The translations under genes and the position numbers were made by a program. From assembly GCA_044356455.1 (NCBI GenBank), contig JBIKWF010000063.1, positions 1 through 24,602 of the forward strand: a DNA stretch of 24,602 nt, given 5' to 3'. Positions 15,406 through 22,067 of the stretch are shown here, piece by piece. The stretch's first letter is position 1. Every line of letters begins with the position of its first letter. Below the pieces are notes generated by a model. It made no database searches, was not told where the DNA came from, and worked only from the letters and a program-made list of their open reading frames with translations. The stretch comes from Bdellovibrionota bacterium (lineage in GTDB: Bacteria; Bdellovibrionota_C; UBA2361; JBGSMV01).

Positions 15406-16068
15406 ATGTCCGTCTTTATAAAATTCTCGCGTCCTGGCTCTTCCGATAAAGTGGTGCGGGTCAAAGCGGCTCATAGCCGCTTTGGACTAGATGCATTTGG
15501 AATTCCATGTTTTGAGTCCCCCGTTACCGCCTGGGGTTCCCTGCTAGTGACAGGTTCTGAGGGCGTAGTAATCCCCGAGACTTCAGCACTAAAAATCGAG
15601 GGCCGGAACCTTCTCACGCGTGAAGCATTACGGCTGAAAGATGGAACGACCTGCTCAATCGGAGAGGTGACTCTTTCGTTCTTCTTTACTTCGCCTGCCG
15701 CAGAAGCCCTTTCAGAGACACCAGAAATTACCTCGGCATTGGACTCGAGTTATACTCTCGAAGAGCTTCCCTCTCTCACTTATACGCTGCCCTCTATTGG
15801 CCGAACCATTCCACTTTTCCCTGGCGCCTCCTATTCACTTGGCTCAGATATTTCATGCGCCCTGTATCTTCCGCTCGCAGGAGTTGCCCCACATCATGCA
15901 GTCATATCGGTAACTTCCTATGAGGTTACGATTTTATCTCAGGAGGGCTGCTTGGACTTAGTTCCCGCAGTCGGCGGTAGAATGGTTTCTGCTCTGCCAG
16001 TTACGGCGCGCCTTCTCCCTACAGGCATTCCACTCTCCTTTCGGGCTGGAGCAACCAGAGGAAACTAA
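15406..16068 (+). CDS. FHA-like domain protein (SctD/YscD-cytoplasmic-like), no TM helix
   Basis: YSLGSDISCALYLPLAGVAPHHAVISV; a first degenerate FHA-like half ending LKDGTTCSIGEVTLSF. Confidence 0.6.
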   Translation: MSVFIKFSRPGSSDKVVRVKAAHSRFGLDAFGIPCFESPVTAWGSLLVTGSEGVVIPETSALKIEGRNLLTREALRLKDGTTCSIGEVTLSFFFTSPAAEALSETPEITSALDSSYTLEELPSLTYTLPSIGRTIPLFPGASYSLGSDISCALYLPLAGVAPHHAVISVTSYEVTILSQEGCLDLVPAVGGRMVSALPVTARLLPTGIPLSFRAGATRGN

Positions 16069-16095: not shown

Positions 16096-16425
16096 CTAGG
16101 CCTCTATCCGCAGCACCTTCCTAAGCTCATCCTGCAAGCCCGGATCTGTTTCAAGCATAAGGCGAAGAAATGATTCCATCTCGGCATCACCATGAAGCCG
16201 TTCTGAAACCTTGCTTGCTATCGCTGAGATGGCCGCCTCAACACTCTTAAAGCGCTGAGAGGACAACTGCTCAACTTCTTGTTGCCATACTTGAGCAACA
16301 AGTTTTGAGCGCTCGGCCTCACTGCGCGAAACGGATTCTTTCACTTGAGCATGGGCACCAAAACTTTTCGCGCTTTTGGGCTTCTTCGAAGGACTCTCTG
16401 TTGGTTTATGTTTCAGTTTGCTCAT
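16096..16425 (-). CDS. Hypothetical protein, last gene of the T3SS-like operon
   Basis: ATGA overlap with the TPR gene and a GAGG RBS; basic N-terminus, helical C-terminus. Confidence 0.7.
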   Translation of the reverse strand: MSKLKHKPTESPSKKPKSAKSFGAHAQVKESVSRSEAERSKLVAQVWQQEVEQLSSQRFKSVEAAISAIASKVSERLHGDAEMESFLRLMLETDPGLQDELRKVLRIEA

Positions 16426-16973
16426 TGGTTCCTCATCGACTCAAGGTTACTCATAATTACGGGGTGCGGCGCAAGAGCTGCTGCCTTTCTAAGTTCCTGC
16501 AAGGCCCTGGCTTCAGCTTTGCGGGAGCTCGCTTCATCAAAAAGCGCCGCTGCTATGTTATTCCTTATCCTTGGATTACTCGGATTTGAGCGAAGAGCCG
16601 CTTCGTAGAGCTTGAGCGCCTCTTTTCGCTTCCCGAGAAGGTCATAAAGCACCCCCAGGTTAGCGAGAGGCGTTCTATAGCTTGGATCGAGCTCAAGAGC
16701 CTTCAAAAAATAGCTCTCTGCCCTCACGTAGTTACCTTCTAGAAGTGCCACACAGCCCAAACCATCGAGGGCAGGCGCTGTGCCACCTATCTCGAAGGCG
16801 ACTTGGAACGAGGCTCGCGCTTCGTCAAACTGAGCCCTGCGCAGGTATCCTGTACCCTGTTCCACAAGTTTTTCAGCTTCGCTTTCCCTCCCTGCATCAG
16901 GCTGAGGAGGCGCGAAACAGGCCGAAAGGATGCCCGCTAGAAATGCTACCAGCAAAAATTTGAACGTTCTCAT
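16422..16973 (-). CDS. TPR-repeat lipoprotein (pilotin-like)
   Basis: Lipobox LSAC; TPR patterns LG..AL..G.Y..A...F.KALELDP, NLGVLY, NNIA; ATGA overlap with the export gate gene. Confidence 0.85.
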   Translation of the reverse strand: MRTFKFLLVAFLAGILSACFAPPQPDAGRESEAEKLVEQGTGYLRRAQFDEARASFQVAFEIGGTAPALDGLGCVALLEGNYVRAESYFLKALELDPSYRTPLANLGVLYDLLGKRKEALKLYEAALRSNPSNPRIRNNIAAALFDEASSRKAEARALQELRKAAALAPHPVIMSNLESMRNQ

Positions 16974-18863: not shown

Positions 18864-19190
18864 TTATCCGACTCGAATGTTTCGAAGCGCGGTCATTTGG
18901 ATCTCATGCTTGGATTTCTCAATATTTGAGAAGAACGTCATGAGCTGGAGCTGCTTCTGTTGCTCGATTTGCTCCTGGATGAGACCCGCATAATCTCCGT
19001 TGAGGCCGGGAAATTGTGATGAGCCGCCGCCGGTAAGCGCTCCCGCAACTCGGCTCGCAATAGCGGTAGCCCCGTTCATCAGGGTGCTAAAAGTACTCCC
19101 GGTACGCGTAGTGGGCTCCGCCATAAAGCGGGCAGCACGACCAAAATTAAGATGGGCTCCGAGCGTCGAGAGATTGAGAGGAGAACTCAT
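18864..19190 (-). CDS. Small T3SS-associated protein, candidate needle/inner-rod (SctF/SctI-like) subunit
   Basis: GGAG RBS 6 nt upstream; C-terminal amphipathic helix QLMTFFSNIEKSKHEIQMTALRNIR resembles needle-subunit C-termini (SN..K..h.....I..N.R). Confidence 0.6.
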   Translation of the reverse strand: MSSPLNLSTLGAHLNFGRAARFMAEPTTRTGSTFSTLMNGATAIASRVAGALTGGGSSQFPGLNGDYAGLIQEQIEQQKQLQLMTFFSNIEKSKHEIQMTALRNIRVG

Positions 19191-20136
19191 ATGATACTCC
19201 AGTAAAGGTAGACTCCTCCTTATCGGAGCGGCTTGGCAAAAGTTGCGTCTCAGACGGAGAATTAAAGAGCTCCTCTATCCGGATACTTAGGCCCTGCTCC
19301 TCGATGCCAACGGCTACGGCAGCGATGGTCCGTCCACCCATGCGAAGATAACCCGAGGTGCCCTGCGGGAGGTCGCATTCCAGTGCGTGTCCTACACGAA
19401 TTCTTAAAAAGTCCTGCAAGGGAATCTCAAGCGTCCCCATCTCTAGCGTGAGGTTTACGTTAGTGTTCTCCGACATGTGCAACTCCTTTAATAGCAATTT
19501 GATTTTTGAAACAGATTTGGTCAAAAGCCCTTGTTCGGCCGAGGTATTCACTTGGAGCGCTGGCTCGGCGCGTGCAGTCCACTGCGTACTTTCATCGACG
19601 AGCATCAGGGAATTGCCCCAGGGAATCTTGCATTCAGATTTAAGCAACAGCGTGGGCAAGGTGGGCTCGAGTTCAAGCATCAAGCGAAGCGCCGTCACTG
19701 CACGAGCTTGCTGCGAAGCTACCTGCCCACCACCTTCAGCTGGGAGAGGGAGCAGTGGCGGCAAACCACATACGGCGAGAATTCCTCGCATCTGCGAATC
19801 TTCGCTCCAGAGCTGAAAAAGCGCCTCGTCACCTGGAGGAGCTATCTCCACGCCGAGCTGCAAGCGAAATCCGTCAGGCATTCCCTTGAGCGTCCCGGCA
19901 AGAAGATAGAGACTCCGCCTCGACATCTTTTCCCCATTTCTCTCGAAGCGTACTCCCCAAAGATCTCCCTCGGCGCCTCGCGAAACCCAGAGCCGCGGCG
20001 CCACCGTATCCGGGGAGGCTTGGCCACAGAAACGAGGAGTTACGTGCTCGAGTCCGAGTTGAGACAACAGCAGTGTTACGCGCGCTTCTAAGAGCACGAT
20101 ACTTTCGTCCACTTTTTGTTGGCGGAATTTCAACAC
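19147..20136 (-). CDS. SctQ/FliM-FliN-like sorting-platform protein (C-terminal SpoA domain)
   Basis: VNLTLEMGTLEIPLQDFLRIRVGHALECD...YLRMGGRTIA...GLSIRIEEL; GGAGGT RBS before the GTG start; N-terminal part unrecognisable. Confidence 0.7.
   Translation of the reverse strand: MLKFRQQKVDESIVLLEARVTLLLSQLGLEHVTPRFCGQASPDTVAPRLWVSRGAEGDLWGVRFERNGEKMSRRSLYLLAGTLKGMPDGFRLQLGVEIAPPGDEALFQLWSEDSQMRGILAVCGLPPLLPLPAEGGGQVASQQARAVTALRLMLELEPTLPTLLLKSECKIPWGNSLMLVDESTQWTARAEPALQVNTSAEQGLLTKSVSKIKLLLKELHMSENTNVNLTLEMGTLEIPLQDFLRIRVGHALECDLPQGTSGYLRMGGRTIAAVAVGIEEQGLSIRIEELFNSPSETQLLPSRSDKEESTFTGVSYEFSSQSLDARSPS
19220..19251 (-). promoter_or_regulatory. Internal sigma28-type promoter upstream of the needle-like gene
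   Basis: Minus strand GAGAC-GCAACTTT-TGCCAAGCCGC-TCCGATAA; N11 spacing as in the consensus TAAAGTTT-N11-GCCGATAA; 29 nt upstream of ATG 19190. Confidence 0.75.
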
Positions 20137-20333
20137 GAGAGAAGCACCTCCACGGCAATCTCACGCGCCCACGAAGGACGTAGGTTTTTTAAAAATGAAA
20201 GCAGTGCGCGGGTTGCAGTGCTCAAGCTCTCCTCACCCGCAGCACTGGCTGAGGCGCTTTGCAGGAAAATGCTCGCAGCATGGTACTCCTCCTGCGAAGA
20301 AGCATTCACATTAGAGAGGCTGGTGAGCTTCAT
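20130..20333 (-). CDS. Small hypothetical protein (67 aa) between the sctJ and sctQ-like genes
   Basis: GGAGGT RBS; overlaps both neighbours and fills the operon gap exactly. Confidence 0.55.
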   Translation of the reverse strand: MKLTSLSNVNASSQEEYHAASIFLQSASASAAGEESLSTATRALLSFLKNLRPSWAREIAVEVLLSC

Positions 20334-21237
20334 ATATGAAGACCTCCGCCTTTCGTTTTCGCCTGAGCAAATAAAGCGCGAGGCCTACGCCCGCAATCAC
20401 GAGGGATGCCGCCACTTGCAGCGCCATTCCGCGATGCTGCTCATACCACGCGACCTCACTCCTCGGCGTCACGGGGAGAATGCCGCTCTGAGATAGTTCA
20501 GGAGAAGCACTCGGCGCGAAAGGAGGCAGGGCCGCCGCCTGCCGGGGCTTTGGCTCAGATACCGAAACCATAATCGAGATATCCTTGAAGGGGATGCCAG
20601 ACGCACCTGCCACAATCGAAGCCACATCCGTCCTTGAAACTGCATCACTCGTAACTACGAGCAGGACACTGGCGCTGCCCGGTGAGCTATCCATTTTTTG
20701 GCCAAACAAAGGATCGACCATGGGCAAATTTAAGTGCACGCGGCTTTCAAGAACTGCGGGGACATTATTAAGCGTCTGCTCAAGCTCTCGCGCCAGCGCT
20801 CGCTCAAAGCGGAAACGCTGATCTTCACGACTGCTCATCAAAGAACTCTTTTCGAGAGGCGCCGCATCCTCATTTCTAAGAAGCCGCGCATCGCTCACCG
20901 CGCGCAAAGCCGGCACGGAAGAGGCGGAATCTACCGCAAGGGCCCATGAGCCATCAGCTTGTTTAACTTTTTCTGACTCGATTCCCACATCAGCCAAGCG
21001 CGTAATAAGGCGATTAGCTTCTGACTCGGAGAGATGATGTATTACTTGTTCTCGGCATCCAGTGAGCGTGAGAAGCGCGAGCAGCAGAGTACCCAGGACG
21101 GCATTCCGTAGACTTTGGCTACGCTGTCTTTGGCCACGCTGTCTTTGGCTACTCTTCGAGGAGCCGCTCCTTGAGCAGTTCAAGCGCTCGCGAATGCAAG
21201 CGAGATACCCACGATTTTGACATGCCACCATTCTCAT
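20311..21237 (-). CDS. sctJ: SctJ (YscJ/PrgK-family) inner-membrane ring lipoprotein
   Basis: Lipobox LTGC; HHLSESEAN; RALARELEQTL..VPAVLESRVHLNLP; SASVLL; IVAGASG; C-terminal TM followed by RRKRK; size matches SctJ rather than FliF. Start uncertain. Confidence 0.88.
   Translation of the reverse strand: MRMVACQNRGYLACIRERLNCSRSGSSKSSQRQRGQRQRSQSLRNAVLGTLLLALLTLTGCREQVIHHLSESEANRLITRLADVGIESEKVKQADGSWALAVDSASSVPALRAVSDARLLRNEDAAPLEKSSLMSSREDQRFRFERALARELEQTLNNVPAVLESRVHLNLPMVDPLFGQKMDSSPGSASVLLVVTSDAVSRTDVASIVAGASGIPFKDISIMVSVSEPKPRQAAALPPFAPSASPELSQSGILPVTPRSEVAWYEQHRGMALQVAASLVIAGVGLALYLLRRKRKAEVFIYEAHQPL
21113..21152. repeat. 15-bp tandem repeat, about 2.7 copies (CTTTGGCTACGCTGT), at the sigma/sctJ junction
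   Basis: Units start at 21113, 21128 and 21143; they encode SQRQR-GQRQR-SQ in the sctJ frame. Confidence 0.85.
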
Positions 21238-21970
21238 TAGCGATCTCCACGAAGGATTTCTCTTTCAGGTAATAGTCCTCGACTATTAATCGCTCTTTTT
21301 CTGGAAGAGTTGCTATCAAAGTGTGAATTTTTTCTTTTTCTTGAAATTTTTCTATTTCTTCCTCGGCTGAGGCATGACTTGAAGCCATCTCGAGGGTATC
21401 GCCTTCCGCGTCTCCCAAGCTTAGGCGAAACATAAGAGCCCCACGCGCGGCGAAATCGAGCACTTCGGCAAGTCGGGGCTGCGCCTGACCGCCCAGTGAA
21501 CCGTCCCCTGCACTGAGGAGCTCCGACTCGCGCACTTCCTGAACTGCTGACAATGCTCTTGCGCAGCGGTATGCCCTCCCAGAAAGTTGAGAATTCTGGC
21601 GAATGTAATCGATTACCGCGCCGCGAATGCGCAGATACGCGAAGGTCTTGAAATCCGCTTTGCTCGTGGGATCAAATCTCTCGGCAGCCTCCACCAACCC
21701 AAGATACCCGGCCCCGACAAACTCATCGTTTGATTCTGGGGGCAGTCCCATCGCTTGAATCATTTTCCCTACAAGCCCATGCACATAAGGCTGGTATCTC
21801 GTGACAAGTGCGTCGCGCTTCTCAAGTTTTGCGTCGGCACGCGAGGATGCAGAGATGGAACGCCCCTTTTTCGGTGGGACCTTTGAAGACGGATTACTCT
21901 TCTTACGAACGATTTTTTTGCGCAGAACCAACTTACGGGTGGTTGGTGGCCGCGTTACTTTCTTTGGCAT
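21149..21970 (-). CDS. FliA/WhiG (sigma28)-like RNA polymerase sigma factor
   Basis: Region 2 GYLGLVEAAERFDP...FKTFAYLRIRGAVIDYIR; region 4 LPEKERLIV..YY....SFVEIA...MSKSWVSRLHSRAL; K/R-rich N-terminal extension; reduced region 3. Confidence 0.9.
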   Translation of the reverse strand: MPKKVTRPPTTRKLVLRKKIVRKKSNPSSKVPPKKGRSISASSRADAKLEKRDALVTRYQPYVHGLVGKMIQAMGLPPESNDEFVGAGYLGLVEAAERFDPTSKADFKTFAYLRIRGAVIDYIRQNSQLSGRAYRCARALSAVQEVRESELLSAGDGSLGGQAQPRLAEVLDFAARGALMFRLSLGDAEGDTLEMASSHASAEEEIEKFQEKEKIHTLIATLPEKERLIVEDYYLKEKSFVEIANENGGMSKSWVSRLHSRALELLKERLLEE

Positions 21971-22035
21971 GCGCGTGACAAATTGAGTTACTCAGGTCCA
22001 ACGCTTCTTGGGGAGCTGCCCTAGAAGTCTCTCTA

Positions 22036-22067
22036 TTATCGGAACTTACGAGCAAAAGTTACGTCTC
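22036..22067 (-). promoter_or_regulatory. sigma28-type promoter upstream of the sigma gene and T3SS operon
   Basis: Minus strand GAGAC-GTAACTTT-TGCTCGTAAGT-TCCGATAA; matches the 19220-19251 copy at 23 of 24 positions outside an 8-nt variable spacer. Confidence 0.75.

Follow-up and report, generated by a model that had tools for sequence, protein, structure and literature searches.

The stretch of DNA analysed here (the window, 24,602 nt, contig JBIKWF010000063.1) is one contig of a 4.70-Mb, 93% complete assembly (GCA_044356455.1) of a Bdellovibrionota bacterium (GTDB lineage Bdellovibrionota_C; UBA2361; JBGSMV01). It harbors on its minus strand an operon of type III secretion system (T3SS) genes headed by a sigma factor gene, in the order sigma, sctJ, a 67-aa open reading frame (ORF), a sctQ-like gene, a gene for a 108-aa protein, a short sctV, a TPR-protein gene and a 109-aa ORF (Table 1). 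The subject of this report is a 32-bp sequence that occurs twice in this operon, and which the original prediction, made from the letters of the window, interpreted as a sigma28-like promoter serving both the autoregulation of the sigma gene and (as an internal promoter) the expression of a filament-like subunit. Both copies were recovered where they had been placed, the second of them lying within the 3' end of the sctQ-like ORF, with its end 29 nt ahead of the start codon (ATG at 19190). With up to three mismatches allowed, the pattern matched twice in the window and not once in 100 dinucleotide shuffles; 23 of the 24 positions regarded as conserved are identical between the copies, which together with one spacer base amounts to 24 identical positions out of 32. 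By the numbering of GCCGATAA (-15 to -8) in a structural report on Pseudomonas aeruginosa FliA (PMC12784957), transcription from site 1 is predicted to start near 22028, and a start near 19212 is predicted for site 2.

Table 1. Positions of the promoter-like sites and operon genes in the window
Feature	Position	Strand	Remarks
Promoter-like site 1	22036..22067	-	-35 GTAACTTT, N11, -10 TCCGATAA; upstream of sigma gene; 22.5 bits
Promoter-like site 2	19220..19251	-	-35 GCAACTTT, N11, -10 TCCGATAA; internal, sctQ 3' end; 27.9 bits
Promoter-like site 3, weaker	21287..21318	-	inside sigma coding sequence, upstream of sctJ; 15.2 bits
FliA/WhiG-like group 3 sigma factor, divergent, 273 aa	21149..21970	-	Pfam Sigma70_r2 and r4
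SctJ-like inner-membrane ring lipoprotein, start codon uncertain	20311..21237	-	PF01514; TIGR02544 E 7e-23, below cut-off
67-aa ORF between sctJ and sctQ	20130..20333	-	no Pfam family
SctQ-like C-ring protein, C-terminal FliMN_C/SpoA domain	19147..20136	-	PF01052 E 1.5e-8
108-aa two-helix protein, candidate needle/pilin (SctF-like) subunit	18864..19190	-	in 39/40 operon loci
Short SctV/FlhA-family export gate, 618 aa	16970..18826	-	one of three FHIPEP genes in genome
TPR protein, lipoprotein-like signal (by eye), conserved after short sctV	16422..16973	-	
109-aa last operon ORF	16096..16425	-	no convincing family

Conservation of the two-box element

The orthologue set consisted of 40 operons of the same order, chosen for carrying the sigma gene and the short sctV on one contig, in which sites were counted at a threshold of at least 12 bits (a dedicated search for related loci returned no confirmed relative). 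In line with autoregulation, 24 of 36 orthologous loci resemble this genome in having a site upstream of the sigma gene (the count omits four loci in which the sigma ORF was not labelled or too little upstream DNA was available). The internal promoter held up as well, with a site before the 108-aa gene in 32 of 39 loci, as against none of 40 before sctV and none in 240 control windows. The 56 orthologous sites found before these two genes share the core A[GC]G[AC]AACTTT-N11-NNCGA[TA][TA]A, in which the C, G and A of the -10 box are kept in 55, 56 and 56 sites, respectively. The consensus of the -35 box is G[AC]AACTTT and not the canonical TAAAG or TCTAAAG, and the GC of an extended -10 is absent from the motif (0.19 and 0.09 bits at positions 25-26). 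The upstream GAGAC, which had been described as a conserved element, was on the other hand over-read, since it is found in none of the 56 orthologous sites and in only 2 of the 92 sites of the genome (see below), namely the original pair.

Furthermore, we identified a third site (missed by the original prediction) inside the sigma coding sequence and upstream of sctJ, a position that carries a site in 11 of 40 orthologues at the same threshold; the start predicted for this site lies near 21279. In the 12 loci (this one included) where site 3 encodes ATLP[ED]KER, the codons GCA, ACT and CGA are used 12, 11 and 12 times out of 12, while the operon genes use ACT and CGA at 27% and 19%, respectively. 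Such a restriction of synonymous codons, observed here among loci that are kin, points to constraint at the DNA level.

The notion that a position weight matrix could trace the motif through the genome was borne out: a matrix built from the 56 sites of other genomes (used in place of a first matrix, which was discarded as biased by repeated elements) recovered 92 sites at a cut-off of 18 bits, as compared to 12, 5, 14, 5 and 9 in five controls. These 92 sites fall into 62 distinct flank clusters, and 11 of them lie deep inside long ORFs. Near matches mostly keep the same spacing, as illustrated by AACTTT-N-NCCGATAA, for which we counted 10 occurrences with a spacer of 11 and zero to one with each other spacer between 6 and 16. 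Moreover, in most of 61 genomes a strict pattern was more frequent than its reversed control (52 vs 7 in this one). We regard the motif as very probably a promoter.

Of the 92 sites, about 35 belong to repeated elements located ahead of Y1-type transposase and PDDEXK_3 genes (site clusters 0-2). Separate sites stand in front of no fewer than six ORF6N-like genes, one integrase gene and several toxin-antitoxin modules, and genes of these types also follow sites in the genomes G033, G035 and G044. Non-coding DNA additionally contains an abundant repeat (about 85 copies, GGTAGGGCG...GTCCC upstream of GCCGA), probably a repetitive extragenic palindrome (REP)-like element.

T3SS, pilus and competence genes behind the element

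The expectation that the motif would lead to the T3SS genes missing from the window was confirmed, as it heads both a sctI-sctO/P-fliO-sctRSTU operon and a sctL-sctN operon. Among relatives, the site before the sctI-like operon head is kept in 25 of 30 loci and that before sctL(-sctN) in 11 of 14, against a background (which applies to the competence counts below as well) of 11 sites in 707 random ORFs and zero to one in opposite-strand controls. The SctI-like rod gene has AscI and HrpB2 as its language-model neighbours (0.92-0.93), and the sctRSTU operon includes a 355-aa gene that was named SctO/SctP-like by eye. SctRSTU, SctV, SctN, SctJ, SctQ and SctL are present apart from the flagellar set, all with equivalog scores below cut-off, and the flagellar FlhA, FliI-like and FliP-like genes lie elsewhere in the genome. 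The search for SctC found two secretins, neither of them assigned to the T3SS, and translocators were not identified. The full-length sctV is part of a cluster with Tad, FHA, kinase and PP2C genes. A second Tad operon has the motif at its head, and downstream of the sctRSTU operon lies a further FHA/YscD-like gene. Eight motif-led small proteins were picked by eye as candidate substrates, seven of which reach at least the 90th percentile for S/T/P/Q/N at the N-terminus, and one of the candidates is pesticin-lysozyme-like. This composition is suggestive, and no more than that, of secreted proteins.

As regards the 108-aa protein, the upstream site of its own stood as a conserved feature, and its predicted identity as a filament or needle subunit is kept as a lead. 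The protein has 553 relatives at E<=0.001, is single-copy in this genome and is predicted to form helices at residues 29-52 and 65-107 (predicted template modelling score 0.38). Its language-model neighbours belong to needle, HrpA and HrpE clusters (0.84-0.87, which below 0.9 is to be read as a lead), and it gives a weak profile match to the SctI family of the lineage (E 0.003, probability 10%). Searches of Pfam and the PDB with this protein produced no match, the AscF profile comparison reached a probability of 0.1% and the AscI one likewise gave no match, while fold searches listed no needle and were uninformative on the fold. As a lead, we consider it a candidate SctF-like needle/pilin subunit, and a strong promoter of its own would suit a subunit made in high copy. 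In other orders (loci L288, L289, L291, L297, L304 and L306) a diverged paralogue stands in tandem behind the 108-aa gene. Additionally, the genome G044 carries a motif-led 76-aa protein (L399:692-919) that contains a GDP loop, resembles the 108-aa family at its C-terminus and is possibly another needle-like subunit; no homologue of it was found in the genome under study.

The second group of genes behind the element, which the original prediction of the regulon had missed, is linked to natural competence. In this genome, sites precede dprA, comEC, comM, radC, ssb, recQ, an ERCC4 nuclease, a pilin and a minor-pilin-like operon (named by eye), and at a looser threshold also recA, comF, pilC, recD2 and a ligase. 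At no less than 13 bits, relatives (this genome included) carry the site before comM in 23 of 30 loci, dprA in 17 of 30, radC in 12 of 20 and comEC in 10 of 28 (two comEC loci were dropped for upstream DNA that was too short); counted by family, the values are 15/20, 14/19, 8/13 and 7/18, respectively. At many further comEC loci the corresponding position has a weakened variant, G[AC]AACAAA. Some competence sites (in G009, G026, G013, G006, G025 and G004) appear to have a spacer of 12 nt, so that counts made with N11 only would understate the conservation. A gene-blind check made use of 40 regions around pattern matches in G033, G044 and G035 (two other families; regions picked by eye, with mostly distinct flanks). 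The 32 downstream ORFs of at least 50 aa comprised 9 of competence/recombination, 1 sctL, 11 of toxin-antitoxin/mobile type, 5 others and 6 without a family.

Flagellar genes, by contrast, are devoid of the element. The motif was found before none of the 24 flagellin-domain loci of this genome and none of 30 fliD loci, and in an anchored search 11 of the 30 fliD loci had CCGAT, 10 of these together with T[ACT]AAG at the canonical spacing (T[ACT]AAG-N15..17-CCGAT). De novo motif search of the flagellin and fliD upstream regions yielded no two-box motif, and a genome-wide scan for canonical TAAAG remained near background. Taken together, these comparisons show a two-box, putative promoter element that is shared by T3SS, pilus and competence genes and stands apart from flagellar promoters. 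The flagellin-domain genes themselves are numerous (more than 20, in the 24 loci) and scattered over the genome, mostly as frames of 430-640 aa. A relative, G042, has 12 flagellin-domain matches, and in G024, G035 and G044 no flagellin was found and a canonical FliA, above the TIGR02479 cut-off, is kept.

The operon sigma factor as candidate reader, and its rivals

Among the 17 sigma70-family ORFs of the genome, that of the operon is the only one with the motif within 400 nt upstream (22.5 bits, next best 7.8). Its product scores 100.2 bits against TIGR02479, below the cut-off of 189.6, yet this is the best-scoring family over the full length, and its closest solved relatives are FliA and WhiG. 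The D-x-x-R of region 2.4 is kept (D121 in 39 of 39 and R124 in 38 of 39 orthologues), the arginine of the extended -10 contact is replaced by G131, and in region 4.2 the helix SKSWVSR replaces ESRVSQ, with its W and its R each present in 38 of 39 orthologues. In the structure of P. aeruginosa FliA, R97 reads the GC of the extended -10, and Q228 (at -36T) and S224 read the -35 box (PMC12784957); our own alignment, which is also the source of the residue numbers used here for the operon sigma, places these three residues at G131, R257 and S253. The combination of G131 and R257 fits a motif without GC preference and with a changed -35 box. The flagellar FliA of this genome, which the original prediction had not noticed, is a separate gene behind flhF-flhG, keeps the canonical R and Q, and has no motif upstream. 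Three further sigma70-family genes (C41:11014, C117:39876 and C10:21432) look non-ECF (ECF, extracytoplasmic function), and one of them has a FliA-like EARASQ helix.

Of 18 loci examined in other orders, 17 have the sigma-sctJ arrangement. In these orders the pattern is enriched in the 13 genomes that keep W254 (73 vs 14 control matches) and not in the 4 that have lost it (7 vs 9); in genomes with a differing sigma helix no alternative shared motif was found. We hold with good confidence that the operon sigma reads the motif, a conclusion drawn from sequence comparison.

By extension, we consider it probable that an autoregulated and re-tuned second sigma28 at the head of the T3SS operon drives a regulon of T3SS, pilus and natural-competence genes. 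The operon sigma, with its CGA-reading residues kept, its contact to the GC extended -10 lost and its -35 helix changed, would recognise promoters of the form G[AC]AACTTT-N11-NNCGA but not those of flagellar genes, which have T[ACT]AAG. Transcription of the sigma gene from its own promoter would provide positive feedback and a switch-like state, and the internal promoter would boost the high-copy filament subunit. The switch may then turn on the assembly of the injectisome together with the genes for DNA uptake and recombination, the same promoter being carried by mobile and toxin-antitoxin genes. More tentatively, and at somewhat less than an even chance, we suggest that throughout this order of uncultured, Bdellovibrionota-like bacteria the duplicated flagellar sigma could be the master switch of a state in which cells kill with the T3SS and then take up DNA, and in which transposases, integrase and toxin-antitoxin genes would be timed to the same period.

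A number of observations weigh against the operon sigma as reader or against the extent of its regulon. G131 is found in only 20 of 39 orthologues (7 have R in that column), the covariation with W254 rests on 4 genomes of 3 families, counts among kin are not independent, and outside the order a site of at least 13 bits precedes the sigma gene in only 1 of 13 loci. G042 has the pattern (11 vs 0) though the operon sigma was not found there; neither were the 108-aa gene, the short sctV and the sctI-like gene in this 82% complete genome, and the sigma of G063, too, was missed in one search and found in another. On the side of the regulon, no site was found at the full-length sctV or in the Tad/FHA/kinase cluster next to it (best 5.8 bits), so that not all T3SS parts belong to it. 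Furthermore, neither TIGR00426 nor PF12836 detected a canonical ComEA; the genome G033 has a ComEA candidate, a small membrane-anchored helix-hairpin-helix protein downstream of a site (HHH_3 E 0.005), and the comEA-like gene of the present genome rests on its match to that protein (E 1e-10). A 25-bit site precedes this homologue, whose sequence is divided between contigs C27 and C82; the two contigs have 126 identical bases in common.

The shape of the motif itself is also compatible with another reader, as G[AC]AAC-N16-CGA[TA] with a T-tract after AAC fits the form of ECF promoters; those of Bacillus SigW and SigM have a comparable geometry. An ECF sigma could thus read the motif, with the operon sigma as one of its downstream targets, and in agreement with this known T3SS sigma factors such as HrpL are ECFs, the genome has several ECF-type sigma genes, and the motif persists in G042, where no operon sigma was detected. 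Nevertheless we judge this explanation unlikely, given that the -10 box is a full CGATAA and that the enrichment is lost where the helix of the operon sigma changes. ECFs usually autoregulate (PMC7826278), and none of the other 16 sigma ORFs of this genome exceeds 7.8 bits upstream, an argument tempered by the fact that some ECFs do not autoregulate.

Still less credit is due to the proposal that the flagellar FliA reads both promoter classes and that the operon sigma is one more of its targets. In Bdellovibrio, FliA acts as a global regulator of the attack phase, the CGA core is common to both classes, and G042 has a FliA together with the motif; moreover, FliA is kept even in relatives in which no flagellin was found, so that these relatives do not discriminate between the two readers. 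The absence of the motif from flagellar targets (with fliD canonical instead), the canonical residues of FliA and the lack of a site upstream of its gene all argue to the contrary. It is similarly improbable that the sigma is assigned correctly but governs a DNA-damage/stress (SOS-like) programme to which the T3SS is linked incidentally: sites do occur at recA, ssb, recQ, recD2, ligases, ERCC4, integrase, transposases and toxin-antitoxin genes, but no lexA, uvrA, recN or dinB was recognised among the listed ORFs, on inspection by eye and without a direct search for these four genes. Chance or local duplication devoid of a regulatory role is scarcely credible, because relatives throughout the order keep the core at each of the two positions and dozens of independent genes carry it as well, even if a local copy event could explain why sites 1 and 2, and no other site, share GAGAC and TGC beyond the core.

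Precedents, significance and neighbouring features

Each part of the proposed regulation by the operon sigma can be matched by a precedent (the global role of FliA in Bdellovibrio, ComX, HrpL, and Kil with T3SS*). HrpL is, like the operon sigma as proposed here, a dedicated T3SS sigma factor with one box before each T3SS operon; it is however an ECF, whereas the operon sigma is a group 3, FliA-like and probably autoregulated factor that would cover competence genes as well. In common with FliA/sigma28 of Escherichia coli and P. aeruginosa, the present system has the 11-nt spacer, a dedicated promoter for a probable filament subunit and the CGA core of the -10 box, CGA being the conserved -10 part of E. 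coli sigma28 promoters (bioRxiv 2020.01.02.893370). It differs from them in being a second paralogue beside a normal FliA, in its -35 box (G[AC]AACTTT vs TCTAAAG), in the lack of preference for a GC extended -10 and in its targets, which would be T3SS and competence instead of flagellar genes; in addition, no FlgM-type partner was identified here, the 67-aa and 109-aa ORFs being anti-sigma candidates solely by their position. In Bdellovibrio bacteriovorus, probably of the same broad lineage, a promoter of sigma28 type likewise serves a large set of genes outside the flagellar system, FliA-like promoters being reported for 92 of 140 attack-phase starts, but there it is FliA itself that uses TTAAG-N16-CCGATA, in contrast to the paralogue, the other -35 box and the T3SS/competence regulon described here (PMC3627812). 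At the other extreme, sigma28 of Chlamydia is reported to control only two genes (PMC10597470).

With respect to competence, Vibrio cholerae also joins a contact-dependent secretion weapon and DNA uptake in one programme (PMC6783263), albeit with a type VI secretion system (T6SS) and the activators TfoX and CRP, where we propose a T3SS with Tad and an autoregulated sigma. Streptococcal ComX/SigX and Firmicute SigH are alternative sigma factors that act as master switches of late competence genes (PMC12378983; PMC3364868); in the present case the host is a diderm, the factor would be of FliA-family origin and its gene lies inside a T3SS operon. Tad and T3SS genes occur together in Myxococcus xanthus too, as Kil (Tad) and a needle-less T3SS*, a co-occurrence that appears restricted to Cystobacterineae (PMC12428579). 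Unlike that system, ours has an SctI-like rod and a needle candidate, and it is the second Tad operon that carries the motif, the one holding sctV being without it. In the titles and abstracts of the literature, which leave subscription papers mostly uncovered, we found no FliA-type regulator or paralogue that controls T3SS or competence.

If the reading given above is true, a FliA paralogue would constitute a third route of competence control, beside ComX/SigH and TfoX-type activators, and a competence sigma of FliA origin in a diderm would couple an antibacterial injectisome to natural transformation, extending the coupling of weapon and DNA uptake from T6SS to T3SS. There is also a hint here that an early-branching injectisome acts on bacteria. 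Moreover, a cell with two sigma28 paralogues, each reading a promoter class of its own, would represent a natural experiment in the divergence of sigma specificity. As a tool, the motif has led to scattered T3SS operons, to a divergent ComEA candidate missed by family models and to candidate secreted proteins.

Several minor features of the operon and its surroundings complete the description. An FHA/YscD-cytoplasmic-like ORF (weak Pfam match) on the plus strand of the window (15406-16068) converges on the end of the operon, and three tandem CCAAAGACAGCG-like units (21107-21147) directly follow the sigma stop, in the N-terminal frame of sctJ. Most genomes of the order have three FHIPEP genes, namely FlhA, the full-length SctV and the short operon SctV (in this genome on contigs C184 and C110 and in the window). 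The short SctV aligns over its whole length to PRK05910, a chlamydial FlhA-like model; in Chlamydia, flhA adjoins the sigma28 gene. Two copies of the operon-type sigma are present in G013, G030, G041, G048, G053 and G058.

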